Counted from the whole stretch's first letter, positions 1,723-63,172 are shown. The stretch is DNA of 63,172 nt, filler included, from Stramenopiles sp. TOSAG23-6 (GCA_900128565.1; 37 parts of 37 records of this genome joined end to end with filler, not necessarily neighbours in it); one strand, 5' to 3'. The notes: generated by a model from the letters alone, not told the origin. A program made the numbers and translations.

Positions 1723-1772
1723 TGTACCTAACAATTAAAAAAATTTTTTTTGAATATTTTTCCAAAATACAT

Positions 1773-2791
1773 GATCAACGATGTCAACTGTTACAGCATA
1801 AAGAATTTTCATCATTTCTTCAAAATATACAAAATATACAAAATTTTGATTCTTCTGACAACGCGAATGAAGTGGTTGATGATGATGATGATTTTGAAAA
1901 TTTTGATGCGCAAAGCCGTACAAGAAATTTACGCGCAAGAAAGAAAATTGATTATACACAAGAAATGTAGGTTTTTTTTAAATGTATATATATTTTTTTT
2001 TTGAAAATTTTTTACCTAACAATTTTTTTTACATTTTTTTTTTTTTATGTGGTAAAATTTTTTTTTTTTTTTTTTTTTTTAAAAAAATTTTTTATAAAAA
2101 TTTTGTACCTAACAATTTAAACTTTTTTTTTTAAATTTTTTTTCTACATTACATCCACAGCCGTTCATATCAACGTAGTCGACGTAATTATAATGATAGT
2201 TCAGAATATTCAGATTATTCAACGGATTCATCAATTGATACAAGTGATTTTTCATCAGATTTTGATATGTACGAAAATGCACGAAATCATAAAAATAATC
2301 AAAAAAATAAAAATAATCAAAAAAATAAAAAAAAACGAAATTGGCGACAAGTCAATATTTCATTAAATCAAAATGATCTCGAAGAAATGAAGAAATGGTC
2401 TGAAAAATTGAAAGAATATCAAGGTATAGTTGCGTTAGATAGTATGAGAGATTTACCAAAATCTGTACGTTTTATTTTTTTCTTACGAAATTTCGTACCT
2501 AAACCTAAAAAAAAACTAAAAAAAAAAAAAACTAAAAACCTAAAAAAAACTCAATTTTTTTTAGAAAAATTTTTTTTATACGAAATTTCATACCTAACAA
2601 AAACAAATTTGTAAACTTGTTTATATTATCGTACAATAAATGTTCACTCTTCAATATCACAAAAAATTCGACAAATGTTAAGGGAGAAAAAAATCACACA
2701 AACAACCTTAGCAAAAGAATGGGGCATGTATGTTCCAATTTTTAGATTTTCTTTTTTTTGGTTTTTCATACGAAATTTTGTACCTAACCAA

Positions 2792-2827
<36 letters not shown>

Positions 2828-3226
2828 GGTATGAAATTTTGTACCTAAACCTAAAATATTTTTTTTTTTTAAATATGTGTACACAATTTATGTTGGATAG
2901 TGTTGGAATATCACAATGGCTGGGTGGCAATATACTCACTCAACATAGCGTAATCGTAGCTGGACAGAAATTGATTGTATGTTGTAATATAGCTTGTTTA
3001 ACTATGAAATTTCGTACCTAACAAAAAAAATTTTAAAATTTTTAAAAATTAAAAAAACAAAAAAAAAAAAAAAAAAATTGTATGAAAATGTTGTACCTAA
3101 CTAACAAAAATAAATATAATTAAAAAAAATTTTGAAATATTTTTAATAGTGTAGGAATGGTATATAAAAAATGGTGGTGACGTCACACTTGTACCGGATA
3201 AATTGAAAGATGATTTAGTATCAAAT
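1773..3226 (+). CDS. Multi-exon hypothetical protein with HTH-like segment (KITQTTLAKEWGMLDSVGISQWL); introns 1967-2154, 2465-2641, 2728-2891 (GT-AT) and 2977-3154 (GT-AG)
   Basis: Five exons join in one open frame with these boundaries. Confidence 0.6.
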
Positions 3227-3257
3227 GTGTGTTTTAGTTTTTTTTCAATGTTTTGCT

Positions 3258-3289
<32 letters not shown>

Positions 3290-3529
3290 GGTAAAAAAAT
3301 TTTTTACCTAAAAATTTTTTTTTTTTTTTTTGGAAAAAAAAAANNNNNNNNNNNNNNNNNNNNNNNNNNNNNNNNNNNNNNNNNNNNTTAATTAATTAAN
3401 NNNNNNNNNNNNNNNNNNNNNNNNNNNNNNNNNNNNNNNNNNNATTTCAAAAAAAATTCTAAAAAATTTGTTAGGTACAAAATTTCGTACGAAAAAAACA
3501 ATTCCAATTTGAAAAAAAGTAAAACATAC

Positions 3530-7040: not shown

Positions 7041-8500
7041 ATGTGGACATATTATTGTACTATTTATGGATATGATGAACCAATGCAAAGAGATTACAAC
7101 AAATCTTCTGCACTTTTTTTTATTGCTGTTAATATTTTATGTTCATTTCTTGTTTTAAATGCCTTTGTTGGTATTGTAATCAACTATTTTAACAAAATTA
7201 AAAAAGAGCAGGAAACAAATATACAAGGATCATGTAGGTTTTTAAATTTAAATTTCAATTTGAAAAAAAAATCAAAATATTTTTTCAAAAAAAACATCAA
7301 AATTTTTTCGTAGTAAATTTTGTACCTAACAAAATTTTGAAATTTTTTTTTGAAATATTTTCAAAAATATATTTTTAACAGATGATCAAAAATTATGGAT
7401 TGAACAAATGAAAATTGTCTGGAGTTTCAAATGTGATGATGTATTGATTGCACCACAACGTCCTCATTTGTACCATAAAAGTATAAAAAATGATACATAT
7501 TCGAAATATTTCAAAAATATTTCAAATATTTGGTTTTGGATTAGACAAAACTGTTTTCAAATTATTCGAAATTCAAAATTTGAAATTTTTGTATTATTTT
7601 TAATTTCATTGAATATGATAATCATGTCATTTACACATAGTAATGAAGGTGACACGTGGCATTCTACATTGATGTATTTAGATCTTTGTTTTACTATACT
7701 ATTTACTATAGAAATGATGTTAAAATGTATAGGTTTAGGTATCAAACAATATGTAAGTTTATTTTTAAATTTTTTTTTTTTGAATTTTTTTTTTTTTTTT
7801 TATGAATTTTTTTTTGTATGAATTTTTTTTTTTGAGAAAATTTTTTGAAAATTTTTTGAAAATTTTTTGAAAATTTTTGAATTTTTTTTTTCGTACGAAA
7901 TTTTGTACTTAACAAAATTTTTGATTTTTTTTTTGAAAAAAATTTTACATAACAAAAAAAAAATTTGAACAATATTTTCACACAATATATGCAAATTTTG
8001 AAACATTTTGGGTATCTGTATTGACATTATTTCGTGCAGTTACTGGTGAAAGTTATAATGCAATTATGCATGATACTTTAATAAAAACGCCGTACTGTGA
8101 AGAATCAAAATGGTGGGATCAAACACGAAATATGTATAGATATAGTAATTGTGGACCGGGTACCGTGAGTGCATTCTTTTTTACATTTTCATTTACAATT
8201 ACAAATTATATATTTTTGAACATTTTGATTGCAATTATTCTTGATAATTATTTAGAAGCAAGAAAATTTTCTGAAAATGTGATATCAAATGAAATATTTG
8301 AAGATTTTAATGCGAAATGGACAAGTTTTGTATGTTTTTTCTTTTTTTTCTCATAATTTTAATTGAATTTGAATTTGGAATTTTTTTTTTTTGGTTTTTA
8401 TAAAAATTTTATACCTAACAAAATTTTTTTTTTTTTTTAAATTTCACAATATATGATAAAAATGGTGATTTATTTATACCATTAAACAAATTAGCATCAC
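7041..8500 (+). CDS. Four-domain voltage-gated Ca2+/Na+ channel alpha subunit fragment (domain III S6 to C-terminal EF region); introns 7234-7372, 7753-7990, 8330-8454
   Basis: LNAFVGIVINYF, FLTDDQKLW, FTIEMMLKCIGLG, NFETF..SVLTLFRAVTGESY, FLNILIAIILDNY, WTSF|DKNG. Confidence 0.9.
8330..8454 (+). other. GT-AT intron whose donor is not preceded by AT (rules out an AT-AC reading)
   Basis: TTT|GTATGT...CACAATATAT|GAT gives WTSF|DKNG. Confidence 0.85.
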
Positions 8501-10882: not shown

Positions 10883-11935
10883 TTATCCAAAATCTGTTAA
10901 TTGTATTTTAAGTTCCTTTACTCGGCGTGCTAATTTTCGGATTGTCGGTAATGTTTGCGCTTTTTCTAACATCCACAATCTGTTTTTTGCTGCAAGTTCT
11001 TCTCTTCTTCTTTCAAATTGTTTCTTTTGAGTTTTTATCCATTCTTCAGACTGATTTTCACTATTTTGTTTTTCATTCTCCTTCCCACTCAATGTCTCTT
11101 TTATTGTCAGCGTACTACCTTTCCTATTTGTCATTTTCTGCGTTGTATGTAATTTTGCAATTTCTTCTTCCACAAATCTAATTTCTTTTTTATCTGATTC
11201 TGCTTGCAGTTTCCTATGTTGCCATTGTCTCAATGAGTTTCCTATGACACGTAATTCAACACGAATTTCTTCAGCATAAGAATCATCAATTTTATGTATT
11301 GTGAAAAAGTACAAAATCAGAAAAAATCACAAAAAAAATCGTTAGGTACGAAATTTCGTATGAAAAAAAAACTAGATTTGAAATTGAAAAAAAATAAAAC
11401 ATACATGCACCCTAAAGGATGACTTTGATGTCTTCTTATCTAATTGTTTAGATTGTTCTATTTTTTGAGGATCTACAATTTTGGTCTTGGTTCCTTGTGG
11501 TGTAATGCTATAATATTCGTTGCTATTTTCTAAAGTAAATTTACTTTCGGCATTAGCATTTCGTCGTAGTTTCGTACGATGCTTAAAAAGATCATGTATT
11601 GTGAAAAAACAAATTAGTTAAGAAAAACTCGTTAGGTACGAAATTTCGTATGAAAAAAAAATTAAATTAGAAATTCATACGAAACGTACATATCTAGTGG
11701 GACTTAATTGTTGTTTTTGAAATAGATTGTTTTGTTGATTTTGTATAATGCTTTGAACTGGGCTATTATCATTCGATTTCATATAAGATTGTCCAGTCGA
11801 TTGATCTAGTACAAGCTCTACAGGACATCGCGGTGGGCGTCTCTCTCTTCTCTCTGGAAATTTCAAATACCAAGGTGAAGACAAAATTTCCTCTTGTGTC
11901 TGATTTGTTCCAGCATCTAATTTGTTTTTAGATGA
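10883..11935 (-). CDS. Coiled-coil hypothetical protein; GT-AT introns 11294-11404 and 11594-11689
   Basis: Three exons join in phase 0 at ...CACAATACAT acceptors. Confidence 0.65.
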
Positions 11936-12035: not shown

Positions 12036-13651
12036 CTTTCAGAAAATTATTTATTGCATTTCTAAAATTGATATTTTCTCTGTGAATTTAACAAACAATG
12101 CATTCGGAGATTGAAGTAAATTTTTATTTATTTATACCACAAAAAAAAGTCTTTATTCGTTTATTCAGTAAAAATGTGTTGCAATGATTATTGCATGTGT
12201 AGTATGAGTAATTCAAAATGTTTTTTTTGTAATTTTGTTTTGTAAATTGTTTTTTTATAAATTGTTTTTAAATTACTTCACTTCCAGGGAAAGCACTGCA
12301 CAATCAAGCATATAAAATGCCTCGCTACTAACTCCACTACCTCCAGGATTTTCGCACAAATATGGAGCTCTACCAATGGATTGAATACTAAATAGTTCAT
12401 CAGAGAGAAAATCTCTACAGACTCTATTTACAAAACCTTCAAAAGTTTCATCACTTGGACATTTTTCAGATAATAAATTTTCTTCTGGTCCAGAGTACTA
12501 CTTTATATTTTACCACATAGCTATAGCCTATATATAGCTATAGTAGATTTGTTAAGATTGATTTATTATTTAAAAATTTTACTATAAAACTATAGAGAAT
12601 TATCCAAAATCTGTTAATTGTATTTTAAGTTCCTTTACTCGGCGTGCTAATTTTCGGATTGTCGGTAATGTTTGCGCTTTTTCTAACATCCACAATCTGT
12701 TTTTTGCTGCAAGTTCTTCTCTTCTTCTTTCAAATTGTTTCTTTTGAGTTTTTATCCATTCTTCAGACTGATTTTCACTATTTTGTTTTTCATTCTCCTT
12801 CCCACTCAATGTCTCTTTTATTGTCAGCGTACTACCTTTCCTATTTGTCATTTTCTGCGTTGTATGTAATTTTGCAATTTCTTCTTCCACAAATCTAATT
12901 TCTTTTTTATCTGATTCTGCTTGCAGTTTCCTATGTTGCCATTGTCTCAATGAGTTTCCTATGACACGTAATTCAACACGAATTTCTTCAGCATAAGAAT
13001 CATCAATTTTATGTATTGTGAAAAAGTACAAAATCAGAAAAAATCACAAAAAAAATCGTTAGGTACGAAATTTCGTATGAAAAAAAAACTAGATTTGAAA
13101 TTGAAAAAAAATAAAACATACATGCACCCTAAAGGATGACTTTGATGTCTTCTTATCTAATTGTTTAGATTGTTCTATTTTTTGAGGATCTACAATTTTG
13201 GTCTTGGTTCCTTGTGGTGTAATGCTATAATATTCGTTGCTATTTTCTAAAGTAAATTTACTTTCGGCATTAGCATTTCGTCGTAGTTTCGTACGATGCT
13301 TAAAAAGATCATGTATTGTGAAAAAACAAATTAGTTAAGAAAAACTCGTTAGGTACGAAATTTCGTATGAAAAAAAAATTAAATTAGAAATTCATACGAA
13401 ACGTACATATCTAGTGGGACTTAATTGTTGTTTTTGAAATAGATTGTTTTGTTGATTTTGTATAATGCTTTGAACTGGGCTATTATCATTCGATTTCATA
13501 TAAGATTGTCCAGTCGATTGATCTAGTACAAGCTCTACAGGACATCGCGGTGGGCGTCTCTCTCTTCTCTCTGGAAATTTCAAATACCAAGGTGAAGACA
13601 AAATTTCCTCTTGTGTCTGATTTGTTCCAGCATCTAATTTGTTTTTAGATG
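12036..13651. repeat. Duplicate of contig 10319-11935
   Basis: Essentially identical sequence and ORFs. Confidence 0.95.
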
Positions 13652-17229: not shown

Positions 17230-18199
17230 ATTCCATTACCAAGTGGACTGCAGCAACCAAGAATGTGCAATGTTTCGTGTAAGGCAGTGGACCGTAAATC
17301 TTGTAATACATCGGGTGAAGCACTGTTTGTGACATCAATTACAGCTGGACAAAAATTATACACACCTACGGTACATGTAGTATAGGAAAATATTTTTTTG
17401 AAAAAAAAATTCAAAAATATGTTAGGTACAAAATTTCGTATGAAAAAAAAAAATCAAAAAATCTCAAAAATCTCAAAAAAAAAAATCAAAACATCTCAAA
17501 AAAAAACATACATCGATCTAAAGTATCTTTTTGTACGCAATATGCGAATCCAGCCACACTTGCAGAAGGACTAGGTTGCATGGTAATGATAATAACTAGA
17601 TCTGTATTAGTATATTCTTTCTTCAATGTCGCTATTGATCCAAAATTGTCTAAATTTGTTGTTTTAATTTTAATAGTGTCAGTCACTGCATTCATGAGGA
17701 CTCCACTTTTAATGTAATTTCCTGTCCATTCATTCAACGACTTTACTAGCTTTTGCTTTGCATCTGTAATAAGATCATCTTCCTTGCAAGTATATGAGCA
17801 GTTGCCAGATGATCTTGCAGAACATGGATCAACAGTCTCACCTACGGTGTGACAGTGTCCATTACCTTTGACACCAGAAAAATGAGTTAAAAAATCATAT
17901 ACATATTCAATTCTCATGTTTCCTACAGTATTTTTCAAAGTTTCATTTTTGAGACGCATCGACGGTGAATTCCAAGGGACGGCTGTATCTAAACGTCTTT
18001 CAATGTTATTTTTATAATGTAGTTGTGTTGTATCACTATATTTTTGACTGGAAACAAAGGGCTCCGGGAATATTGAGCCAGGAGTATCCGCTGGTAAGTC
18101 AGCAATTTGATTATGATGCGTTTCATGATTATGATGATGATGACCATGCGCTGATACTTTTACTATTGAATATATGATCAATATAGATAATAAGAACAT
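17230..18199 (-). CDS. Leishmanolysin/GP63-like M8 metalloprotease, secreted, 3'-partial; GT-AT intron 17375-17511
   Basis: Hydrophobic N-terminus; AYCVQKDTLDR|CTVGVYNFCP...HETLHILG (HExxH). Confidence 0.85.
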
Positions 18200-20514: not shown

Positions 20515-20714
20515 NNNNNNNNNNNNNNNNNNNNNNNNNNNNNNNNNNNNNNNNNNNNTTAATTAATTAANNNNNNNNNNNNNNNNNNNNNNNNNNNNNN
20601 NNNNNNNNNNNNNNATGTATGTTTTCAGGATCAATTTTAAATTCATTTTTTTTTCGTACGAAATTTTGTACCTAACAAAAACTTTTACTAAAAAAAATAT
20701 TTTCCCAAAATACA

Positions 20715-22164
20715 TGAAAGCTACGGATAAAATGAATCGTCTTATGAAAAATGCAGGAAAAAAAATCACCTCACATGTGGGAAAGAATAAAGATGTTCAT
20801 TTTTCTTCTAAAACTAAAAGAATGTATGTTTTCATCAATTCTAACTAATTATAGATAATGACGTACCTCAATGTTTTTTTTAATCTACATTTTTTTTATA
20901 GGAAATTTCGTACCTAACAAATTTGAAAAAAAAAATATACTTTTTTACAATGTGTGGTCGCAACATTTGAAAAAGATTCACATAATTTGAAACAAGTAAC
21001 TAGAAGTGGTTTGTCTCTGTTGATGCAAAGTCTTCAGCACGTAGAAAACAAAGCGAGTCTTCGAATTGTTCATTCAACAATATATCAGAAACATGTCGCT
21101 GTCAAGCATGTACATTTTNAAAATTGAATTTCAAATGTATATATATTTTTCATACTAAATTCCGTACCTAACGATTTTTTTTCGGTANAAAAAAAANATA
21201 TTTTTTCACAATACAGGGACATGTAGAAGAAGATCCCGATCCNACAAAATCAAGTGCAACTCAGCAAAATCTCGCTGCAGCTTCAATTATTGTTAATGCT
21301 GTGATGGATTTCAATACGGAAGTACGTTTTCATTATGAATTTTAAATTTCTTTTTTTTTATTCAAAACAAAATATACTAAACAAATTTCAAATTTGATAT
21401 AATTCCCCAAAATACATGTATTCTACTCTATGGACTGTGCTGCGGAAATTGTACTAGAAGATGGCAAAAATGTTGTAGTAGATACGACAGATGATATCTA
21501 TGGAAAAGAAGCTTCAGAACTTGTATCTGAAGTTGCTGAAGCACTCACTGATGATATATCTGTTGCTGGTACAATGTGTAAAATGGCAAGCATTGCCTCG
21601 TGTGGTACAACCACTGTAGTTGTAGGTATTGGCAAAAGCGCGATACATTTGAAAAATCGTTCAGAATGGGCGTCAGGCGATATCATTCAACAAGGGTTTA
21701 TGTACAGTTTACTTCCTCGAGAGTTATCAGATGTAATTAAAGTTGCTAAAAGTGTAAGCAAAAGCACAAAAGAAAAGGCAACCAATTTTTATCATCAAGG
21801 TCTGGAAAGTTTTCAAAAAATAAAAAAACAAACCTGGTTTCGCAAGGGTAAAGCAGTAGCTGCTGCAAAAGATCATGAAACACCTAAAACAACGAAAAAC
21901 AATGCGAAGGATATTATCGTACATGAAATGGATGGTGTAACAAAAGAAGCGGATGTAGTTGTGAATGTTGCAACAAAAGTGATTCTAAAATGGACCAAAG
22001 TCTGTATGTTTTATTTTTTTTTCAACTTCGTTTTTTTTTTCGTACGAAATTTTGTACCTAACGAAAAACAAATTGAAATATTTTTTCATAATATATGGTG
22101 TATTTTACGACAGGACACCTTTGCTGTATTTCAGGAAAAGCCAAAAAAAGATAACGCAGAAGAT
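20715..22164 (+). CDS. Multi-exon protein with PH-domain start; introns 20824-20955, 21110-21216 (AG), 21322-21417, 22004-22096
   Basis: Splicing restores KWTKV-W-CILRQDTFAVF (PH beta1/beta2 WxKxWxxL); the second W codon is formed across a GT-AT junction. Confidence 0.65.
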
Positions 22165-22329
22165 GTATGTTTTATTTTTTTTCAATTTCGATTTTTTTTC
22201 GTACGAAATTTTGTACCTAACGATTTTTNNNNNNNNNNNNNNNNNNNNNNNNNNNNNNNNNNNNNNNNNNNNTTAATTAATTAANNNNNNNNNNNNNNNN
22301 NNNNNNNNNNNNNNNNNNNNNNNNNNNNC

Positions 22330-24524: not shown

Positions 24525-24796
24525 TTTTTCTAATGGACTGAGTGAAGTTTTCCTGCACAAGGGAAAAAGACCACGAACACGGCGGCCGAAAGAAGAAATG
24601 TGCCCGGGTCAAAAAAGTGGCTGAATCCATCCGACAAACCTGTCTGTCAACGAAATTTCGTACGAAAAATGTGTACCTGGATTTTGACTTAGAGCATACT
24701 TGCTTAGAGAGATTTCCTAACTCGTGTTTGAGCTGAATCAAATTTGGAGATTTGAGATTAGATTGTAGTCTAAATTCTAGTTTGAATGCTAAGAAA

Positions 24797-29044: not shown

Positions 29045-29076
<32 letters not shown>

Positions 29077-45026: not shown

Positions 45027-46080
45027 ATGATGGCATATACAGTCGCTAGACGTGGGTTTTGCTCAGCACGAACTCTCTTGAAAGACAATCTTTGTTTGAC
45101 TTTTCCTGGTCAAGGGACTCAATACTATGGTATGGGCAAACAACTTTGTCATGATTTTCCTTTTGCGCGTTCTATTTTTGAACAAGCTGATGAAGCTCTT
45201 CAATATAACTTGTCTCGTCTAATGTTTTCAAGTCCCACTGACAATAACGACGACCAATCAACTTGTCTCTCTCAAACAGAGCATGCACAGCCTGCAATAT
45301 TAATACACTCCATCGCTACTCTTGCAATATTACGTGAAGAATGCGGATTAAATTTAACTTTTGATTCTGGGGTTGACAGTGCTGTCTCCGTAGTCCTTGG
45401 ACATTCTTTGGGGGAATATACTGCACTAGTTGCTTCTGGGTCGTTATCTCTAAGTGAAGGTGTACAGTTAGTACGATCAAGAGGTTTAGCGATGAGCAAT
45501 GCAGTTCCCAATGAAATAAAAACGTTAATGTCTGCTATGATGCCTACTACACGAAATGCTGTTTCTGAACTAATCCAGGAAGTTTCTAAAAACTTGGGCG
45601 AAGGACATGTTTGCAATATTGCTAATGTCAACTCAAGAAAGCAAGTTGTAATTAGTGGAACTAAAGCAGCTGTGGAGTTAATTGCCAAATTGGCCAAAGA
45701 AAGAAAAATATGTTTGTTTTCATCATTGAATTTCAAATTTGTTTTTTTTTTCATAGAAAATTTTGTACCTAACAAAAACAAATATTTTTGAAAATATTTT
45801 TTCACAATACATGTCGCAAAAGTATACCCTTAAAAGTGAGTTCAGCATTTCACTCCGATTTGATGGCTCCAGCAGTAGAAGAGTTGAAATTGGCCCTTTC
45901 AAATGTTTCTATTAAAACACCAACAATTCCAATTATATTTAATGTAGATGCGTTGGAACGTCCTCATAATGCAAAGATATCTATCGAGGGTAATGTAGAT
46001 AATATAGAGTATACTGATGATGTCGTTAAAAAATTATTACTCCGACAGATGGTTTCACCTGTTCTATGGCTAGATTCTAT
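45027..46080 (+). CDS. fabD: Malonyl-CoA:ACP transacylase (mitochondrial-type); GT-AT intron 45712-45812
   Basis: FPGQGTQ, AQPAI, GHSLGEY, QVVISG, I|CRKSIPLKVSSAFHS, SPVLW. Confidence 0.95.
45712..45812 (+). other. GT-AT intron in fabD
   Basis: T|GTTTGT...GTACCTAAC...CACAATACAT|GT; no AG between branch point and junction. Confidence 0.88.
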
Positions 46081-46272: not shown

Positions 46273-47876
46273 TCCTGTGGACTTCGGGTACAAGATATAT
46301 TTTGGTACCCTACATTTTTGGCGCCAACGTCAACCCGAACCGGTCAAATAATTTTTGGAATCGAAATTCGAAAAAAAAAAAGTAACTGGTTTCCTTTTTT
46401 TTTTACACGTGTGACTGCCGTGTGACTTGTCACTTACACAATATACAAGTGTAGCCTGTTAATTGTGTTGTTATTGACATACCTACTGTAGATACTACTA
46501 CGACCTCTCTTTTCTAGTGTATTGGTTACATAGATAACTCTACTACTGGTAAATATTAGGCCTATTCGTATATCAACTTGATCACGGCTTGTTCATAAGG
46601 CACTAGGGATAGCTATTGTTGGTCATATTATAAAAGGAACCGCTGTGGTTTTATTTGTTCATTAATATGTTTTGCGCTGATCTCTATACATATTAGAACG
46701 CCAAGCACTCACTATAGCTAGTTACCCATAATGATGGCATATACAGTCGCTAGACGTGGGTTTTGCTCAGCACGAACTCTCTTGAAAGACAATCTTTGTT
46801 TGACTTTTCCTGGTCAAGGGACTCAATACTATGGTATGGGCAAACAACTTTGTCATGATTTTCCTTTTGCGCGTTCTATTTTTGAACAAGCTGATGAAGC
46901 TCTTCAATATAACTTGTCTCGTCTAATGTTTTCAAGTCCCACTGACAATAACGACGACCAATCAACTTGTCTCTCTCAAACAGAGCATGCACAGCCTGCA
47001 ATATTAATACACTCCATCGCTACTCTTGCAATATTACGTGAAGAATGCGGATTAAATTTAACTTTTGATTCTGGGGTTGACAGTGCTGTCTCCGTAGTCC
47101 TTGGACATTCTTTGGGGGAATATACTGCACTAGTTGCTTCTGGGTCGTTATCTCTAAGTGAAGGTGTACAGTTAGTACGATCAAGAGGTTTAGCGATGAG
47201 CAATGCAGTTCCCAATGAAATAAAAACGTTAATGTCTGCTATGATGCCTACTACACGAAATGCTGTTTCTGAACTAATCCAGGAAGTTTCTAAAAACTTG
47301 GGCGAAGGACATGTTTGCAATATTGCTAATGTCAACTCAAGAAAGCAAGTTGTAATTAGTGGAACTAAAGCAGCTGTGGAGTTAATTGCCAAATTGGCCA
47401 AAGAAAGAAAAATATGTTTGTTTTCATCATTGAATTTCAAATTTGTTTTTTTTTTCATAGAAAATTTTGTACCTAACAAAAACAAATATTTTTGAAAATA
47501 TTTTTTCACAATACATGTCGCAAAAGTATACCCTTAAAAGTGAGTTCAGCATTTCACTCCGATTTGATGGCTCCAGCAGTAGAAGAGTTGAAATTGGCCC
47601 TTTCAAATGTTTCTATTAAAACACCAACAATTCCAATTATATTTAATGTAGATGCGTTGGAACGTCCTCATAATGCAAAGATATCTATCGAGGGTAATGT
47701 AGATAATATAGAGTATACTGATGATGTCGTTAAAAAATTATTACTCCGACAGATGGTTTCACCTGTTCTATGGCTAGATTCTATGTATGTTTTATTTTTT
47801 TTTTAAACAAAAAAATTCGATTTTTTTTTCATACGAAATTTTGTACCTAACAAATTTTAGTTTTTTTTTTTGAAAT
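46273..47876. repeat. Exact duplicate of contig 44569-46172
   Basis: Identical sequence and ORFs. Confidence 0.95.
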
Positions 47877-48123: not shown

Positions 48124-49227
48124 ATCTCATCCGCTAAAATAGAGGATCGATTTTGAATCCAATTAAAAATTAACCAATTGACACCTTCTACTTGATAATC
48201 ACGAAGAACAAGACCTCTTTTTTTTGAATATGGACCAGAATTAGCAGTATAGAAATTATTTTCGATTTGTTTTGATTTTTTGTTTTTTTTCTTTTGATGA
48301 TGTTTTTTAGATTTTTTTTGTACTAGAAAAAAATCATCAAATTGTTTTTCTAGTCTTAATTTGTGTCTATTATATATTGATATAATTGTTGTATCATTAA
48401 TATCCTCAATTGTTTCCCATGAACATGTATTTTGAAAAAATAGTTCAAAAAAATCTAAAAAAAAATTGTTAGGTACAAAATTTTTTTACGAAAAAAAAAC
48501 AAAAAAAAAAAAATAATTTTGAAAAAATATTTTGAAAATTTTTTTACGAAAAAAAACCAAAAAAAAAAAATAATTTTGAAATTCATGATGAAAACAAACA
48601 TGAATCATATCCTAACGATCCACCCCATTTTACTAAATATTCATATTTTGGTTGTTTTTTATTTGTAGGATATTTTTGAAATGGTTTATTTCCATTTTTT
48701 TTACATTTAGGGCAAAACCAATTTTGATCTTGGCAATTATCTATAGTATAATCTACACAAATTTGATGATACGTCATATCACAACCATCACAATATACAA
48801 TATCTTCTCCATTATCATATATTTTTGGAAAATATTTGAAAAAAAAAAAAACTGTTAGGTACAAAATTTCGTATGAAAAAAAAAAAACATAATAATTTGA
48901 AAAAAAAAATATTTGAAAAAAAAAAAAAAATGTTAGGTACAAAATTTCGTATGAAAAAAAATATTATAATAATTTGAAAAAAAAAAAAAAAAAAACATAC
49001 TCCTCCTTGACACACAGAACAAGTAAACTTCCCACCACATTCAAACGCACTACATATAAATTTACCTTTTGGAATTTTTTTTAATCCTATACATTGTTGA
49101 TGATAGGCTCGAGAACATTTTCCTTCACAAATGACATTTATTTTGGGAAAATATTTAAAAAAAATTTTGAATTTCAAATTTGTTAGGTACAAAATTTTTT
49201 TACGAAAAAAAACCAAAAAAAAAAAAA

Positions 49228-49279
<52 letters not shown>

Positions 49280-49519
49280 ATACATGCCTTGTGGAAAAAA
49301 AAAATTTTGAATTTAAAATTTTTTAGGTAAAAAATTTTTTTACAAAAAAAAACCAAAAAAAAAAAAATTTTTTTTTTTTTTTTTTGAAAAATAAATAATA
49401 AAAATAAATAATAAAAACGTACAATATCATTACCCTCAGACGTATCACCACCACCACATAAACAACAGAATATATCTTCTTCTTCGTCGTCGTCCTCATC
49501 AGCAACACGTTGACCAACA
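48124..49519 (-). CDS. CHD-type chromatin remodeller fragment (two PHD fingers, chromodomain, SNF2 start); introns 48425-48599, 48817-49000, 49136-49422
   Basis: [86 protein letters not shown]...SILADE. Confidence 0.92.
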
Positions 49520-51381: not shown

Positions 51382-51464
<83 letters not shown>

Positions 51465-52110
51465 CGAAATCGAACAATATGTTAGGGTTAGGGTTGTTAG
51501 GGTTTTCTGCATTATGAAAACAAACATGAGAATAATACAGGCTCTTGAGATACAACACCAATGTTTCGTCGTAATGCAACAGGACCACCAGGATATTCGC
51601 GAATATTACGACCCCCAACAAAAATATCGCCATGTAATTTTAGGAAAATATTTCAAAAAAAAAATTGATTTTTTTGTTAGGTACAAAATTTCGTACGAAA
51701 ACCATAAAAAAAAAAATTTCAAATTCAAATTTTGAAAACGTACATCTAAAGGGTCATATAATCGACTAATTAATGCAGTGACTGTCGATTTCCCACATCC
51801 ACTGCCACCGACTAATGCCAGATGATGCCCTGCCGGGATTTTTAATGACAAATTTGAAAGTACAGGTACAGACCTGCGCGTCGGATATGAAAAATGAATA
51901 TTTTTTAATTCGATCTCGCCAAGGTTAGGATTATTTGGATTATTTTGATTATTAGTTTTAACAACAATGTTTTTATATTCTTCTTCTATTTTTTTCTCTT
52001 GTTTTGAAAATATCTCAAAGTCCATTGGAATTTTCTTCATATCAACAGGAGAAGTCATTGAAGGTATTCTATCTAAAATTGTAAATAAACGTGAAGATGT
52101 TTTGTGAAAA

Positions 52111-52145
<35 letters not shown>

Positions 52146-52219
52146 GAAAAAAAAAAATTTGTTTGGGAAAAAATTTTTTTTTAAAAAAAAATTTTTTCCC
52201 AAACAAATTTTTTTTTTTC

Positions 52220-52254
<35 letters not shown>

Positions 52255-52268
52255 TTTTCACAAAACAT

Positions 52269-52839
52269 CTTCACGTTTATTTACAATTTTAGATAGAATA
52301 CCTTCAATGACTTCTCCTGTTGATATGAAGAAAATTCCAATGGACTTTGAGATATTTTCAAAACAAGAGAAAAAAATAGAAGAAGAATATAAAAACATTG
52401 TTGTTAAAACTAATAATCAAAATAATCCAAATAATCCTAACCTTGGCGAGATCGAATTAAAAAATATTCATTTTTCATATCCGACGCGCAGGTCTGTACC
52501 TGTACTTTCAAATTTGTCATTAAAAATCCCGGCAGGGCATCATCTGGCATTAGTCGGTGGCAGTGGATGTGGGAAATCGACAGTCACTGCATTAATTAGT
52601 CGATTATATGACCCTTTAGATGTACGTTTTCAAAATTTGAATTTGAAATTTTTTTTTTTATGGTTTTCGTACGAAATTTTGTACCTAACAAAAAAATCAA
52701 TTTTTTTTTTGAAATATTTTCCTAAAATTACATGGCGATATTTTTGTTGGGGGTCGTAATATTCGCGAATATCCTGGTGGTCCTGTTGCATTACGACGAA
52801 ACATTGGTGTTGTATCTCAAGAGCCTGTATTATTCTCAT
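52269..52839 (+). CDS. ABCB-type ABC transporter NBD fragment; GT-AT intron 52622-52733 (mirrored copy on minus strand)
   Basis: [40 protein letters not shown]. Confidence 0.93.
52666..52689 (+). repeat. Dispersed conserved intron core TTCGTACGAAATTTTGTACCTAAC (representative copy; dozens in the window, oriented with the host gene)
   Basis: Visible directly, and as recurring peptides VRNFVPN / SYEILYLT in the ORF track. Confidence 0.97.
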
Positions 52840-52900
52840 GTTTGTTTTCATAATGCAGAAAACCCTAACAACCCTAACCCTAACATATTGTTCGATTTCG

Positions 52901-52983
<83 letters not shown>

Positions 52984-54683: not shown

Positions 54684-55025
54684 NNNNNNNNNNNNNNNNN
54701 NNNNNNNNNNNNNNNNNNNNNNNNNNNTTAATTAATTAANNNNNNNNNNNNNNNNNNNNNNNNNNNNNNNNNNNNNNNNNNNNGTATTTTGGAAAAATAT
54801 TTCAAAAAAAAAAATATCGTTAGGAACAAAATTCCGTACGAAAAAAAAAATTATTTACTAAAAGAAAAAAAAAAAAAAAAACATTGAATTTTTAATTTTT
54901 TTTTTTTTTTTAATTTTTTTTTTTGATTTTTTATAATAATAATGATGATAATAATATAAATCCTTCCGAGTAAATCTGAAGCTGTAAAGAATAAATACAG
55001 AAATCATATTTTATTAATTTATTTC

Positions 55026-56293
55026 TTAAAGCATATATTCATCGCGCAAAGCATTAGCTAAATAATCAACCTTCAATTGCTCTTCGATATCTTCAAAATA
55101 AACAAATTCCATCTTTTGTATTTTGGAAAAATATTGCAAAAGAAAAAAATTTTAATTTGTTAGGTACAAAATTTCGTATGAAAAATAAATTCAATTTCAA
55201 AATTAAAAAAAAAAATAAAACATACATCATTCTCTAAAAATTGAATACGTTGCTGCAATGCGCTAAGCGTAGCATCACATGTATTGTGAAAACATATTTA
55301 AAAAAAATTGTTAGGTACGAAATTTCGTATGAAAAAAAAATAAATTAGAAATTCATATCAAACGTACATTCTCTATCGATATATTCTTTATATCGTTTTG
55401 GACTACATCCCTTATCTCTCCTTGGAATATAGTATAGGAAAATATTTTTAAATGTTTTTTGTTAGGTTCAAAATGTACAAAAAACAAATGAGGTAAGACA
55501 TTTTGCATTTTGAAAAAGTACATTCCCCATAGACATTCTTGTATCAAGATAATGTATTTTAGAAAAATATTTCAAAAAAAAAATTGAAAAAAATCGTTAG
55601 GTACAAAATTTCGTACGAAAAATAATTTCGATTTTTTTTTTTCGGTAAAAAAAAAATAAAACATACATACCTTCCCTAGGACTTACCCGTCGCTTGGCGT
55701 CATGAGTGAGAAATGCTCGAGCCACTTTTTCAACTTTGGATATATTGTAAAAAAATATTGTTCAAAATTTTTATTTTTTTTGTTACGATATACATTTTTC
55801 ATAGTAAAAAAAAATTAGAAATTTCATTTTTCATAGTAAAAAAAAATTAGAAATTTAATTTCATTTTTCATAGTAAAAAAAAATAGAAATTTAATTTTGA
55901 AAACTGTACAATAGCCTGGAGGTAAAGGTGGTACCGTTGTTCTCAAATGTGGTGGTATCAGCGATTTTTTGTCTGTTTCCCAAGGATGTGGTAAACCTAG
56001 TAACTCATAATTTGTGAAGAAATATTTGAAAAAAAATGTTTTTTGTTAGGTATACAATTTTGTAAAAAAATGAATTTTTTTTTTTTTTTTTCGTAAAAAA
56101 AAAACCTACATATATTGTACAACCAATTCCCCAAATATCAGCTTTTCTATAATCATACACCGGTGATGTTTCAGAAGCACTGGCTACTTCTGGGCTCATA
56201 TTAGCTGGATTACCTTCCCGCGTACTAGGCAATAATGTTTTACAGCTGCATCCGAAGTCTATCAGTCTAATCTCACCAACACGGTGAAGCATT
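55026..56293 (-). CDS. Ser/Thr protein kinase, C-terminal part in seven exons
   Basis: IRLIDFG, NMSPE, DIWGIGCTIY|ELLG.PHPW, LTHDAKRRVS; introns include 56007-56109 (GT-AT); 30-nt exon at 55522-55551. Confidence 0.9.
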
Positions 56294-56481: not shown

Positions 56482-56878
56482 TTTAAAATTTTTTTTTCGT
56501 AGGTAATTTTGTACCTAACATTTTTTTTTTTTTAATATTTTTTTTTAGACATTCAATTGACAGGAATTGAAATCCCTGGAGCCATGCATGGAATTATGTT
56601 ACCAGGTAACCTGAGATCTTCAAAATCGTTACCCGGTCAACTGTATGAAAATGCAACACAAGAGAGATTTCGTGATCAGATGATTGATCGCATTAACACT
56701 GCTAGTACTTTATTACGACAACAAGCTTTTATTGATCGATCATACTACTCAAAAACAACACCTGATTTAGTTCGTTTACAATTTGAATTAATTTGGTTAG
56801 AAATTAGTATGTTTTTTTTTTCAACTATTTTCCAAAATTTTTTTTTTTTTTTTTTCATACGAAATTTTCATAGTAAAA

Positions 56879-56914
<36 letters not shown>

Positions 56915-57338
56915 TTTTTTAAAATTTTTTTCACAAATTATTTTTACTATGAAAATTTCGTATGAAAAAAAAAAAAAAAAAATTTTGGAAAATAGTTGAA
57001 AAAAAAAACATACTAATTTCTAACCAAATTAATTCAAATTGTAAACGAACTAAATCAGGTGTTGTTTTTGAGTAGTATGATCGATCAATAAAAGCTTGTT
57101 GTCGTAATAAAGTACTAGCAGTGTTAATGCGATCAATCATCTGATCACGAAATCTCTCTTGTGTTGCATTTTCATACAGTTGACCGGGTAACGATTTTGA
57201 AGATCTCAGGTTACCTGGTAACATAATTCCATGCATGGCTCCAGGGATTTCAATTCCTGTCAATTGAATGTCTAAAAAAAAATATTAAAAAAAAAAAAAT
57301 GTTAGGTACAAAATTACCTACGAAAAAAAAATTTTAAA
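56482..57338. repeat. Inverted duplication (fold-back chimera, centre ~56910)
   Basis: Same exon on both strands. Confidence 0.88.
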
Positions 57339-57978
57339 TTTTTAAATTACATAAATTAGGGTTAGGGTTAGTATAACATACATACTATCATATATTGCAA
57401 GTAACGTTGATCTTGGTAAATTATCACCCATATATTGTGGAGATATATTTTATACTTGATTGTTTTATTAAGTATACAATTTGGTACAAAAAAAAAAAAA
57501 AAAAATTAAAAAAATTAAAAAAAAAAAAAAAAGTCTAAAAATTTAAAAAAAAAAAACATACAATGGCTGTGGTGGAGGATCACAATTTTCATTTTGTTTG
57601 ATCCAATCCATAACTGTCATTTTTTTCTTTACAAGTGGATTATGCATTGATGTATTCAACAAAATTGTTGTATTGTGAAAAAATATTTTTTTTTTTAATT
57701 TTATTAGACACAAAATTTTATTTTTTCTGTAAAAAAAAAAAAAAAAAAAAAAATTTAAATTTTTAAATTTTGTTAGGTACAAAATTTCGTACGAAAAAAA
57801 AAAAAAAAACTTCAAAACATACTTGAATAGGATAAAAAGTAAACAGTATCAGGATGTGAAAAACATCCTGGATTATCTAAATAGTATTGTTCTGAAAAAG
57901 CCACAATTAGACGTTCTATTTTTTGTGCTTCTTTAGGTAACATAAAACCGCCAAATGATGAAACGAAATATTTCAATA
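57012..57978 (-). CDS. Sec7-domain ARF-GEF fragment; intron 57668-57822 (GT-AA) plus two GT-AT introns
   Basis: FMLPKEAQKIERL, DTVYFLSYS|TILLNTSMHNP.VK.KMT, GDNLPR..L..IYDSI. Confidence 0.92.
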
Positions 57979-58026
57979 TTTTTTTGTTAGGTACAAAATT
58001 TTTTTAAAATTTTTTTTCATAGTAAC

Positions 58027-58079
<53 letters not shown>

Positions 58080-58179: not shown

Positions 58180-59777
58180 ATCTGTTACAATAGCAGCACG
58201 GTATTCATATTTTAGATCGTGAATACGATGTCTTCCTGCAGTCCAAGATATATCTGTAATATCCAGTGTGTACTCACTGTTTTTAATATAGTTATTATAT
58301 CGTTTTGCTGTGGAAGGAATGTTTTTATGGTGTGTAGTAGAAATTGGGATAATACAAACTTGATCTTTGTACTTTGGATTTCTAGACTTCTCTTTGGAGT
58401 TCCTTGAGACCTGATATTGTTGGAGAACAACATGCGCATTTGTTCCACCAAATCCGAAGGCACTTGTTCCGACGACTGTTCGACCTTTAGTTGGTCCATC
58501 ATTTAGAGTCTCTCCCTTTGTGATTATATGGACACCCATCTCATCAAACGGTATATGCTCATTCGGGGTATTCATGTTGAGGCTTGGAGGTATCCAATTA
58601 TGATATAAAACAAGCACCGTCTTCAATATATTGGCAATTCCTGCCGCAGCTTCTAAATGTCCTATATTCGTTTTGACACTACCTACTCGCAATGGTCCTT
58701 CTTTATAGACCGATCGTCCGCAATTTTGGACAAATACACGTCCTAAAGCAGTCAACTCAATTGGATCACCAAGTTTAGTACCAGTACCGTGTGCTTCAAT
58801 ATACGCCACATCCGCCGGCGATATTTTTGCATCCTTATATGCTTTATCCAATACATTTTCCTGTGACGCGGGATTTGGAGCAGTTAGTCCATTGCTGCGA
58901 CCATCTTGATTGACTGCACTTCCTCGTATTACAGCATACACTATATCATCATCTCGAGATGCATTCTCAACTCTCTTGATAACTACCATTCCACAGCCTT
59001 CGCCACGGGCGTATCCATTCGCTAGATTATCACCAAATTTCACTTTATTTTCTGGCGAAAGCATTCCTGCGGCTCGAAATGCAGAATATGTGCGGGGATT
59101 AAAAAGAAGATTTACTCCTCCTACTAAAGCGGAGTTAATATCCCCACTCCTTAATGCTTGTATGGCATTATGCAAAGCTACTAATGAAGAAGAGCAAGCT
59201 GTATTTATACTGACACTTGGACCCTGAAGGTTAAATGTGTAAGATATACGATTTGCAACAATACTTAAGTCAGTTCCAGTTCCTACAAAAGGGCTGTCAG
59301 TATCTAAGCTAGTGATATTATGATAATCACACGCAGAAACACCCATGAAAACTNNNNNNNNNNNNNNNNNNNNNNNNNNNNNNNNNNNNNNNNNNNNNNN
59401 NNNNNNNNNNNNNNNNNNNNNNNNNNNNNNNNNNNNNNNNNNNNNNNNNNNNNCAATACGTTGTTGTGGGTCCATTTGACATGCTTCTGCATGAGAAATT
59501 CCGAAAGCGGCTGCATCAAAACTCGATATAGTTTTTTCTGACAAAAAAGCCCCGCCTCCTCTAAGGTTAACACGATAAGATGGAGGGGTGTTGGACATTG
59601 CACTTACACCTTTTCTTAGCATTCTCCAAAATGCCTCAGGTGAATCCACTGATCCTGGGAAACGGCAGGACATACCCGTCACCGCAATCAAAGATTTATT
59701 AAAATGTGTATGTCTGGGTAGTTTAATGACTTTTAATCTATTCGGTTTATCAACAGTATTGGAATTGTCTTTCTCGG
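58180..59777 (-). CDS. Type I polyketide synthase ketosynthase domain plus KS-AT linker
   Basis: MSCRFPG, MDPQQR, NTACSSSL, EAHGTGTKLGDPIE, KTNIGHLEAAAG, SAFGFGGTNAH. Confidence 0.95.
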
Positions 59778-60223
59778 NNNNNNNNNNNNNNNNNNNNNNN
59801 NNNNNNNNNNNNNNNNNNNNNTTAATTAATTAANNNNNNNNNNNNNNNNNNNNNNNNNNNNNNNNNNNNNNNNNNNNCTTCTCGCGACGTCCATGCGGCT
59901 TGCTCCGATTGGTCAACACACTGACAAACGACCAAAATGTATTCCTGATACATCTTTGACTACATTAAAAGATAAAGATGTGGGACTACAGAAGTCAACA
60001 GTAGTTCAACGTGTAGAAGATAATGCCCCCCTGAGTGCACTGGAAACACAGGAGTTAGGAAAATCACTATATATTGCGGCTTCTCNNNNNNNNNNNNNNN
60101 NNNNNNNNNNNNNNNNNNNNNNNNNNNNNNNNNNNNNNNNNNNNNNNNNNNNNNNNNNNNNNNNNNNNNNNNNNNNNNNNNNNNNNNNNNNNNNNNNNNN
60201 NNNNNNNNNNNNNNNNNNNNNNN

Positions 60224-61474
60224 CTTCTCGCGACGTCCATGCGGCTTGCTCCGATTGGTCAACACACTGACAAACGACCAAAATGTATTCCTGATACATC
60301 TTTGACTACATTAAAAGATAAAGATGTGGGACTACAGAAGTCAACAGTAGTTCAACGTGTAGAAGATAATGCCCCCCTGAGTGCACTGGAAACACAGGAG
60401 TTAGGAAAATCACTATATATTGCGGCTTCTCATAGAGATACTTTTACAGGTGAAAAAGATATTGGTGAGTGGGTAGCTTTTGAAAGTGATAGAATTGCAC
60501 CATTTGGTAAGCGAGTAGGCGTTAAACAGCATAAATATGGAATTGGAAAGCTAATTGTACTTTTTTTTTTTTTTTCGAAATTATTTATTTTTTCATAGAA
60601 AATTTTATTCTCGACGATTTTTTTATCCAACAAAAAAAAACAAATATATATATATATTCACAATACATGATGTGTGTGTTGATCAAAATCCTCCAAAGAT
60701 TTGGCGGACTGGAAGTATCATTAAGTTTACAAATACTTCAATATTTGTAGAGTTTTGTGACAAATTACCTACCAAAAGTAGTTTTTTTAATTACATGGGT
60801 GTTGGTGGCAATAAGTCACCTGCAAATATTTGGATTGATTGTGTAAAACATAAAACATGTTTGTTTTTTTTTTTTTNGAATTTCATTTTTTTTTTTTTGA
60901 ACCAAATTTTTTACCTAACAAAAAACAAATATATTTTTCACAATACATGTCTTGCTCCTGCGTTTACAATGGCGAAAGCTGCAGATAATCAATTGACTGA
61001 AGGTGCATTGGTTGCTAGTGTCAGCGATGTTTCATTTCGGAATTTGTTAGAAAAACATGGAGGATTTAAAGTGTATGATATAGAAGCTGATGGAAATTGT
61101 TTATTTCGTGCAATTGCACATCAAATATTTGGTGATGTTTCCATGTGTCATGTATTTTTTTTTTTTCAATTTCAAATTTTTTTTTTTATAAAAATTTCGT
61201 ACCTAACAAAAACAAAAACAAAAATATTTTTTCACAATACATGTAATGAGAAAAAGATGTTGCGATTATATGGAGGCAAACGAATTGTATTTTTGCCAAT
61301 TCATTGAGACTAAGTGTAGTCATGTTGATGTAGGAAAAAATCAAAATGATCAAATTTATCAAATTGATCAAAATAGTATTGATATTACTGAAATGAAAAC
61401 CAATGAAATAATACAAAACAATGAAATAGAAAAAAACAATGAAATAGAAACAAACAATGAAACAAAACAAACCA
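60224..61474 (+). CDS. OTU-domain deubiquitinase (OTUD5-like); GT-AT introns 60557-60668, 60859-60948, 61152-61242
   Basis: ADGNCLFRAIAHQIFGD...H|VMRKRCCDYM..N..YF..FI. Confidence 0.88.
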
Positions 61475-61613
61475 ANNNNNNNNNNNNNNNNNNNNNNNNN
61501 NNNNNNNNNNNNNNNNNNNTTAATTAATTAANNNNNNNNNNNNNNNNNNNNNNNNNNNNNNNNNNNNNNNNNNNNCGAAAAATAAATTCGAAATTGAAAA
61601 AAATAAAACATAC

Positions 61614-61749
61614 AACCTCATACTCAACTTCTTTCCAACCAAGCATTGAACGTTCAACGAGAATTTGTGGCGAAACAGAGAGAGCTTTTGCTGCCATATC
61701 AAGCAAATGGTCATGAGAATTACAAATTCCAGACCCAAGACCACCAAGC
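61614..61749 (-). CDS. Single internal exon of carbamoyl-phosphate synthetase large chain/CAD
   Basis: LGGLGSG.C...[18 protein letters not shown]. Confidence 0.92.
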
Positions 61750-61840
61750 ATTTTGGAAAAATATTTCAAGAAAAATATCGTTAGGTACAAAATTTCGTAC
61801 GAAAAATAAATTTGAAATTGAAAAAAAAAATAAAACATAC

Positions 61841-63118
61841 ATTTCTAACTCTTTGCGCTTTCTTTCTTTTTTAATTCGTTCGTCCTCCTGAAGTTTCATT
61901 TGATATTTTTGCAATTTAATCATACGTCTATGTATTATGAAAAAATATTATTTTTAGTAAAAATTTGTTAGGTACAAAATTTGGTACAAAAAAATATTCG
62001 AAATTCAATTTTGAAAACGTACATGCTTTGACTGCGCTCGTTCTAATGCCTCTTGTTTAGCTAGTTTCTGTGCAGCCCACTCTTGCTTTTCCTTTCGCCG
62101 TTTGGATCTCTCTTCTAATTCCTTCATTCGTTTTTCTTTTTCACGTCTCATTCTTTCAAATTGTGCTTTAGTTTCCTCTCTTTCTTGTAATATTTCATCT
62201 CGTTTTTTCTTTTGGGCTAATTCGCGTTGAGCTTTCGTCACTCTTATTGCTTTACGCCATTTTTCTTTCTCAGCAGCTTTATCCTCTGCCTCTTTATATC
62301 GCTTTATTTCGGCTGCTTTTTCTTCTTCCCTTCGTCGCTTTTCGACTCTTTTTTTTGCCTTTTCTAATCTTTTATCTCTTATTCTTCTCTCTTCTATTAT
62401 CTTTAATTTCTTTTCGTATTTGCTTAGTTCTTCAGCAGCTTTTCTTTTCAATTCCTTAGCTTTTCTTTCTATTTCACGTTCTCTTGCATCAGCTATATTA
62501 TCAATCTTTTCCTGAACTGAAGTCTTCCAGGCTTCATTTTTCATTTTAACATCATCAAGATATTCTTCTGTTTCAAGTCTGTGTGAAGTTGTTGGTCGAA
62601 GAGCAGGGTCTTGGTAAACAGCTTTGGGTTGTCTACGACTCATCTTCCAGCTTCGACGTTTTTTCCTTTGTTGACGCGTTTTAGAATTTCGTTTTAATAA
62701 ATTTGTATCATCTGGCGTTTCAGGTCTTTCATATAAACTATGTCTTAATTCTTTGAGTTCTCGTATGTCTTCTTGCATCTTTTCCTCTTGTGCAATCCGT
62801 TCTTTTTCAAACTTTTTCTCTAGTTTTTCTTTTTCTATTTTTTTGAACATATCCATTTCTTTTTTTACATCTGAGCTTTTCATATCTTTGCTCATTTTTA
62901 CACCGGATGCCAAAGCTTTCATCCGTGCTTCCGTTTGAGCTCTAATAATTTCTTGGGTCACAATTTCTTCAGCCTTTTTAGCAATGTTTTCATCTGCAAT
63001 TTCAGTCACAGTTAAAGAAATGACTCTTTCCCAAGTCTCTTCAGATGCAAAATCAGCTAATGATTCTTCAACAATTTCTTGAACAACTTCAGTGAGAATT
63101 GGCTTCCCATAGTCTGTC
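61841..63118 (-). CDS. Charged coiled-coil (K/E/R-rich) protein; GT-AT intron 61930-62022
   Basis: Long K/E/R-rich ORF; exons in phase. Confidence 0.7.
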
Positions 63119-63172
63119 ATGTATTTTGGAAAAATATTTCAAAAAAAAAAACTAAAATTTGTTAGGTACAAA

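Follow-up and report, generated by a model that had tools for sequence, protein, structure and literature searches.

How is coding sequence joined across interruptions that begin with GT and end in AT, when the terminal G of an intron is one of the least variable features of splicing and participates in its second catalytic step? This question is raised by a 63,172-base stretch of DNA (the window), which is composed of 37 unlinked contigs of 1,597-1,622 bases each, arranged in order of length with 36 N44-TTAATTAATTAA-N44 linkers between them (e.g., 1623-1722 and 3344-3443). All of the introns flagged in an initial annotation of the window were found to belong to one repeat family, whose copies align over their full length. 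What is new here is that all of these introns form a single introner-like family with inverted ends and a 2-nucleotide (nt) AT repeat. The observation of frame-exact GT...AT interruptions was confirmed, and these elements are probably spliceosomal introns of introner origin that are removed at GU...AU, with YAU in place of the usual YAG.

Structure, ends, and abundance of the intron family

A family model was built on 16 seed introns and used to scan the 59,459 non-N bases of the window at a cut-off of E ≤ 1e-3. This analysis identified 76 matches in the 37 contigs, equivalent to one per 0.8 kb and to 8.8% of the sequence. The genes hosting these copies were unrelated and included those of ABC, FabD, NCKAP1, kinase, kinesin, CHD, Smr, and OTU proteins, among others. 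The family consensus was (AT)/GTAYGTTTT ... TTCGTACGAAATTTTGTACCTAAC ... ATATTTTTCAMAATAYAT/ (where the slash represents the intron boundary), and the aligned copies shared, in order, the 5′ GTAYGTTTT, a box AATTTCAAATTT, a T run, CRTACGAAATTTYGTACCTAAC, a variable stretch, and a 3′ box GAAATATTTTTYCAMAATAYAT. Introns were counted as 33 non-redundant copies with a donor paired on the same contig (complete introns of 89-188 nt, n = 33; 7753-7990 was left out of the counts), while 3′ ends were counted as 46 ends on non-duplicate contigs. Duplication was apparent as (i) identical contig pairs 3/4, 7/8, and 27/28; and (ii) contigs 31 (51382-52983) and 34 (56482-58079), each of which was an inverted duplicate of itself. 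Such contigs resemble what amplified single-cell DNA often gives, as amplification chimeras would.

The 5′ ends of the introns were those of U2-type donors, with GT in 32 of the 33 copies (the exception being AT at 34515) and a consensus of GTAYGTTTT in which +3 was A in 30/33, +5 was G in 30/33, and +6 was T in 32/33. A TACCTAAC-like branch motif was detected 30-48 nt before the 3′ end in 32/33, which agrees with a U2-type branch site as a motif only. The U2-type 3′ AG was not found at these introns: 30 of the 33 ended in AT, and the others in GT (20955), TT (61746), and AA (55116, where an AG follows 3 nt later). Similarly, the 46 family 3′ ends comprised 41 AT and one each of GT, AG, AA, TT, and CA (the CA coordinate being uncertain). 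The 3′ consensus was TTTYCAMAATAYAT/, with C or T at -3 in 31/33, A at -2 in 31/33, and T at -1 in 32/33, and no AG was present between the branch A and the 3′ end in 29/33. The upstream exon ended in AT in 25/33 (the introns with other exon ends being those at 22004, 26144, 28218, 34670, 49000, 55909, 57561, and 8330) and in T in 31/33, while the downstream exon started with G in 22/33. The initial annotation had described AT 3′ ends with the consensus CAMAATAYAT/ and usually no AG from branch to junction, both of which are borne out by these counts; its estimate of about 45 traced introns, about 40 of them AT-ended, is of the right size once the duplicate contigs are counted.

The termini of the family form inverted ends, ATGTAT...ATACAT, with AT at both flanks in 25/33. 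When the exon AT and the adjoining GTAT were set against the last six bases of the intron, at least five of the six positions were complementary in 26/33. The AT repeat is identical at every site, such that a target duplication and an insertion preference look alike. In one region two family units were observed head to tail with no exon between them (25847-26017), and in another a reversed family fragment (31800-31848) was nested within an intron; these arrangements suggest that copies inserted into copies.

A read-run search with 20615-30600 returned seven DNA runs (shares 0.06-0.60) and eight seawater metatranscriptome runs (shares 0.05-0.15). Reads were compared on one contig, contig 33 with its seven predicted introns, using RNA runs X7, X8, and X11 and DNA run X1. 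In X1, an independent seawater DNA run, the depth over the intron core was 26,193-56,959, whereas that gene's last exon had a depth of 2.7-3.8. This ratio points to thousands of family copies, a rough figure as the depth sums all contigs. An intron of the same family was also identified in an unrelated gene, where it preserved the reading frame, on a metagenome contig of other source (L001). A scan with the family pattern found no locus in genome contigs, none in viral contigs, and one in metagenome contigs.

Reading frame and homology at the GT...AT junctions

The open frame across each junction was compared between the end defined by the family and positions displaced from it by 1 or 2 nt. 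The former was the best of these in 26 of the 33 introns (chance expectation 11), tied in two (8330 and 61840), and worse in five. Homology to conserved proteins was then considered at individual junctions. In the ABC-transporter gene, residues 2-59 of the exon upstream of the intron at 52622-52733 (exon A) match 995-1052 of the solved-structure chain 5ko2_A, and residues 1-37 of the downstream exon B match 1054-1088. Exon A residue 60 thus corresponds to 1053 and exon B residue 1 to 1054, and the motif that had been proposed to be restored here (YDPLD/GDI) is joined exactly. On contig 19, the four NCKAP1 exons joined at the family ends gave 352 stop-free codons, which formed a single BLASTP alignment with P0122, the usable one of two matches from a representative-protein search (residues 16-348 on 235-570, E-value 1e-49). 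There was no gap at any of the three junctions, as the initial annotation had predicted, and the Pfam profile positions continued from exon to exon within a few residues.

For FabD, the exon query had a single database protein at 100% identity, EukProt GSMAST32.ASY1.ANO1.1546.1 (P0001), whose annotated gene model is of the GT-AG type. When scored with a profile of 119 homologues, the GT-AT model reached 307.1 bits and the annotated GT-AG model 298.6 bits, a difference of 8.5 bits in favor of the junction originally proposed. The spacing between two conserved motifs was 28 residues in the GT-AT model, as in 35 of 102 homologues, and 26 residues in the annotated model, as in 2 of 102. In the PHD finger gene, the exon upstream of the intron at 48817-49000 ends with the first Cys pair, and the first residue of the downstream exon is where the Pfam match starts, at profile position 8. 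By these sequence comparisons, exact or gap-free homology was shown at six junctions. Several short exons had no Pfam/PDB match when searched singly, namely exon B of the ABC (Pfam), FabD, Smr, and kinase genes; the second exons of the PH and OTU genes and the split chromodomain had no match alone, and Smr exon A had no PDB match. The motif restorations that the initial annotation proposed for the Smr, kinase, PH, OTU, and chromodomain junctions are putative, the second exons there being queries of too little length or strength. Overall, the frame statistics and homology support the GT...AT boundaries of the initial annotation, with no usable AG, at nearly all window introns; its further proposal, a re-wired acceptor recognition system, is a hypothesis.

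Proposed mechanism and competing explanations

The introns are most likely explained by a miniature DNA transposon that became a U2-type intron of introner origin. The AT preceding the GT mirrors the terminal AT of the element, in the manner of a 2-nt target duplication, and removal of the element together with one AT copy restores the coding sequence exactly. Each copy carries a 5′ splice site resembling that of yeast (GUAYGUUUU), a 3′ motif of UUUYCAMAAUAYAU, and, 30-48 nt ahead of the 3′ end, a branch-like UACCUAAC. In the putative YAU acceptor, the -3 pyrimidine and -2 A of the usual YAG are kept and the last base alone is changed. The branch is presumably the A of CUAAC; step one would be independent of AG, and step two would use, at a set distance, the U that follows the conserved A. 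This second step is perhaps aided by base pairing between the intron's final six bases and the 5′ splice site together with the exon end before it. An end-to-end helix was dropped as the main selector of the 3′ end, as it was predicted (probability ≥ 0.5) in only 8/33, and its role in splice-site choice is for the same reason a guess. We infer that removal occurs at the RNA level, by the major spliceosome at AU, and that the family spread as a transposon. A broader proposal, toward which we lean, is that in an uncultured marine stramenopile lineage of the MAST-3 kind virtually every nuclear intron is removed at a 3′ AU, that its major spliceosome no longer needs the last G, and that a single miniature transposon swamped its genome, the acceptor being forced by the 2-nt AT duplication of this element.

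Several observations weigh against removal as introns at GU...AU, and some of these also favor the alternatives below. Both the removal and its exact place are deduced from reading frames and homology. The weakness of the predicted end-to-end helix is one such point, as is the failure of the frame test at 22004 (by one codon), 49283, 52622, 55367, and 55521, of which homology rescues only 52622. An earlier automatic rule that needed clear frames on both sides found 21 of 25 introns compatible, a count that used three wrong donor coordinates, one of them among the four misses. In the RNA runs compared on contig 33, exon cover was nearly nil (1.5-2.1 in X8, over the last exon only) and no joint was found at a predicted intron, the listed joints all being derived from repeats; this cover is too low to speak for or against splicing. 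Contigs from the RNA runs carried unspliced family copies of other loci (e.g., X11 record 15), for which DNA carry-over is a possible source. In the RNA libraries, the depth over the intron core on contig 33 was thousands of times that of the neighboring exon, a ratio like that of DNA; this depth could represent unspliced or excised intron RNA or DNA carry-over.

The transposon-like ends and the AT repeat at the exon end raise the alternative that the elements are excised from DNA between 2-nt direct repeats, as are the internal eliminated sequences of ciliates, with the assembly representing the unprocessed form. Those ciliate sequences are short AT-rich elements in genes, with a 2-nt repeat, inverted ends, and precise removal, and their removal takes place in the DNA of organisms that have two kinds of nucleus and does not depend on orientation. 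The complementary termini (26/33), the AT direct repeat (25/33), and the very high copy number of the window family fit such a process. However, the window elements are biased to the sense orientation, which DNA excision need not show: in 29 of the 33 introns and at 37 of the 46 3′ ends, the strand of the element was the one with the longer flanking open reading frames (ORFs). The elements also carry splice-signal motifs, with GTAYGT where a 5′ splice site would be expected and TACCTAAC where a branch would be. In addition, long ORFs read through with the standard code, and a contig of DNA run X1 (record 1) spans an exon-intron border in the intron-bearing form, identical to the window over 54962-55146. 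Excision from DNA is therefore considered unlikely.

Alternatively, the same segments may be removed with boundaries lying 2 nt (AT...AC) or 1 nt (TG...YA) to the left, which would make the introns AT-AC-like and not GT-AT. With exons ending in AT in 25/33 and in T in 31/33, most mRNAs would be identical: a -2 shift changes the mRNA in only 11/33 (same in 22/33) and a -1 shift in only 3/33 (same in 30/33). Where the exon ends in AT, cuts 1-2 nt to the left would be indistinguishable even by RNA-seq, and the copy at 34515, with A at +1, is itself readable as AT..AC. On the other hand, GT is kept in 32/33 whereas the AT that would start a -2 register is present in only 25/33, and the -2 register gives a stop in two of the 11 cases where the mRNA changes (28124-28218 and 55740-55909); the GT...AT register was kept on these grounds. 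The U12-type donor [AG]TATCCTT had two matches in the whole window, none at a family intron, the U12-type branch TCCTTAAC had none, and the branch-like motif sits 30-48 nt from the intron end and not 10-20. U12-type introns were rejected on this basis, and a shifted register is quite unlikely.

Ordinary GT-AG splicing at AGs a few bases away, with ...ATAYAT as mere repeat sequence, would be another account. The public model P0001 joins the FabD exons in this manner, through a GT located 5 nt downstream and a more distant AG; an in-frame AG lies within 30 nt downstream in 14/33, where its use would delete only a few codons; and one copy has AG at the last model position (21216) while another has AG 3 nt further (55113). 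Counter to this account, the first AG at least 10 nt past the branch was in frame in 11/33, exactly the chance value, and none of the AGs found 2, 4, 5, or 8 nt beyond the AT (61930, 36914, 26730, 26232, and 61242) was in frame. The ABC intron, with its exact AT junction, has its next AG 88 nt away, and for FabD the GT-AG model had the lower score and a spacing rarely found among homologues. Splicing at nearby AGs thus appears very unlikely. Finally, an artefact by which amplification chimeras or assembly errors placed repeats in genes, or by which the genes are dead, would suit the fragmented assembly with its identical and inverted-duplicate contigs and a region (7753-7990) that may hide a lost exon, but is extremely improbable given the frame-exact ends in 26/33, the gap-free positions in conserved proteins, and the presence of the family in both a metagenome contig of other source and an independent DNA run.

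Source lineage, known systems, and other features of the window

The window consists of fragments of an AT-rich nuclear genome, that of a marine protist. The G+C content was 23-36% across the contigs, and ORFs of 447-538 codons stayed open with the standard code. The name of P0001, the protein with 100% identity to the FabD query, suggests a MAST-3-type, uncultured marine stramenopile, a placement drawn from this name and not from a phylogeny. An Atlas comparison gave a weak hint only, of a eukaryote or diatom-like H+-PPase, and protein searches with a DENN ORF and with NCKAP1 exon 4 returned no matches. The Rfam scan of the window detected no family, and hence no small nuclear RNA, and the tRNA scan detected no tRNA. 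A ciliate origin was dropped as the long ORFs are open under the standard code, and a diplonemid origin was dropped as the non-canonical introns of diplonemids are without GT and have G/C-rich repeats. In the annotated FabD model P0001 (45018-46099), the first junction loses two residues, 17 more codons are cut as an intron, and the end runs into the next intron.

Lineage-wide replacement of canonical splice sites has reportedly occurred in Fritillaria borealis, in which a transposon origin was proposed and the U2 spliceosome is thought to have adapted. Its sites are said to be mostly AG-AC, AG-AT, and similar, with the 5′ GT lost, unlike in the window introns. In the full-text literature searched, a scope that left out most subscription journals and supplements, no lineage-wide GT-AT case was found, and GT-AT introns were represented by rare cases in model organisms and U12-type variants only. 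The same literature held nothing relevant on the introns or splicing of MAST-3, and a paper on Incisomonas, a cultured MAST-3 organism, never mentions the word intron. In a paper on single-cell genomes of uncultured stramenopiles, a standard gene-prediction pipeline is described, and one MAST-3 assembly had too few complete matching proteins to train an ab initio predictor. The GT-AT family is real and probably undescribed.

The closest parallels are found among introners and other transposon-like introns. The introners of Micromonas, Aureococcus, and dinoflagellates, among others (PMC9860276), are similar in that many near-identical short introns occupy unrelated genes, with inverted ends, a short direct repeat, and a coding sequence that is restored upon removal of the element and one repeat copy. 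They differ in their GY-AG sites, often supplied by the duplication, where the window family has an AT end and AT repeat. This survey started from annotated introns, such that the window family would be invisible to it. Amoebophrya (PMC7789003), also a marine protist, has non-canonical ends in >60% of its RNA-supported introns, and a subset of these has 3-5-nt direct repeats over the boundaries and end-joining inverted repeats of 8-20 nt. In contrast to Amoebophrya, which has no single dinucleotide signature and many strain-specific families, the window has one family with near-invariant GT, a yeast-like branch motif, and a uniform AT end. The nonconventional introns of euglenids and hemistasiid diplonemids (PMC12621601 and PMC6221363) likewise have ends that can pair, and an origin from miniature inverted-repeat transposable elements was proposed. 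However, these introns are without GT or a 5′ end complementary to U1, have G/C-rich inverted repeats, and are perhaps removed without the spliceosome, whereas the window family keeps GT, a branch motif, and a T-rich tract. In Physarum (10.1101/2020.10.12.336362), GT-AT accounts for 17% of 1,014 non-canonical U12-type introns. Making up <1% of introns, these combine [G/A]TATCYTT donors with a branch that lies 9-12 nt from the end, while the window family is without either motif and has AT as the rule.

If true, the genome-wide use of U for the terminal G would be a natural experiment on 3′ splice-site choice and a clear-cut example of a transposon imposing a change on the splicing code. Published gene models of MAST-3-kind organisms that are based on GT-AG would then be wrong at most junctions. 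Protein predictions of this sort are probably in error at the majority of exon junctions of these abundant ocean grazers, an issue for every comparative or metatranscriptomic study that uses them. The coordinates of the introns and related features are listed in Table 1.

Table 1. Positions of family introns and related family elements in the window
Feature	Position	Strand	Remark
Family intron GT..AT, phase 2	1967-2154	+	
Family intron GTAGGT..AT, ion-channel gene	7234-7372	+	
Family intron GTAAGT..AT	7753-7990	+	Flanking exons are Ion_trans profile 3-73 and 167-237
Family intron GT..AT, exon end TT	8330-8454	+	
Family intron GT..AT	11294-11404	-	Identical copy 13011-13121
Family intron GT..AT	11594-11689	-	Identical copy 13311-13406
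Family intron GT..AT, leishmanolysin-like gene	17375-17511	-	
Family intron, GT in place of AT at same model position	20824-20955	+	
Family 3′ part, AG at same model position; donor region holds N	21125-21216	+	
Family intron GT..AT, exon end CT	22004-22096	+	
Two tandem family units (25847-25946, 25947-26017), both AT-ended, removed as one or two introns	25847-26017	+	
Family intron, in-frame end AT 26232; AG at 26240 out of frame	26144-26232	+	
Family intron GT..AT, Smr-domain gene	26730-26826	-	Exon A ends at Smr profile 39 of 77
Family intron GTTAGT..AT, kinesin gene	28124-28218	-	Cut 2 nt left would give TGA
NCKAP1 intron 1, GT..AT	31025-31123	+	Gap-free vs P0122; AG 5 nt upstream out of frame
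NCKAP1 intron 2, GT..AT	31321-31505	+	Gap-free vs P0122
NCKAP1 intron 3, GT..AT, contains reversed family fragment (31800-31848)	31816-31945	+	Gap-free vs P0122
Family intron, A for G at +1: AT..AT, or AT..AC with cut 2 nt left	34515-34607	+	
Family intron GT..AT, exon end GA	34670-34761	+	
Family intron GTAAGT..AT; AG 4 nt downstream out of frame	36914-37004	-	
FabD intron GT..AT	45712-45812	+	Identical copy 47416-47516; 8.5 bits over annotated GT-AG
Family intron GT..AT, CHD-like gene	48425-48599	-	
Family intron GT..AT inside PHD finger	48817-49000	-	PHD profile 8-47 from first residue of downstream exon
Family intron, AT end; donor uncertain, frame test failed	49136-49283	-	
ABC-transporter intron GT..AT	52622-52733	+	Inverted copy 51632-51743; exact vs 5ko2_A (1053/1054)
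Family intron, model end AA; in-frame AG 3 nt further	55116-55225	-	
Family intron GT..AT	55279-55367	-	
Family intron GTACTT..AT	55427-55521	-	
Family intron GT..AT	55552-55666	-	
Family intron GTACAG..AT	55740-55909	-	Cut 2 nt left would give TAA
Kinase intron GTAGGT..AT	56007-56109	-	
Family intron GT..AT, exon end TT	57430-57561	-	
Family intron GTATTT..AT, OTU-like gene	61152-61242	+	
Family intron ending TT	61746-61840	-	
Family intron GT..AT; AG 2 nt downstream out of frame (69 vs 6 open codons)	61930-62022	-	

At 34515-34607, AT repeats at both flanks allow five equivalent cut registers, one of which is AT...AC. In the ion-channel gene (7354-8353), about 90 residues are missing between the exons that flank 7753-7990, and an exon may have been lost where the assembler merged two similar introns. 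On contig 15, the RPL37 gene has no family intron. This ribosomal protein L37-like gene (24290-24530, minus strand) is about 23 codons short, the second Cys pair of the zinc finger being among the residues missing, and its two conserved parts are in different frames with a 34-nt GTAAGT...CAG segment between them; it may be a truncated copy or reflect an assembly deletion. About 60 nt upstream of its start codon, and outside any recognizable intron, is a palindrome, TTTCGTACGAAA, that corresponds to the family core (24650-24670). Telomere-like CCCTAA/TTAGGG hexamers were scattered in introns and coding sequence (for example, at 52860-52885, 57360-57380, and 28670-28690, as well as 2260-2330 of L001), with 20 plus 16 in the window, and the in-frame copies encode Asn-Pro runs (such as NPNPN) in several ORFs. 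A further gene, on the minus strand of an intron-free contig with a 100-N gap (58180-59775), encodes the ketosynthase of a type I polyketide/fatty-acid synthase, with the Pfam ketoacyl-synt N and C domains and C-terminal extension.

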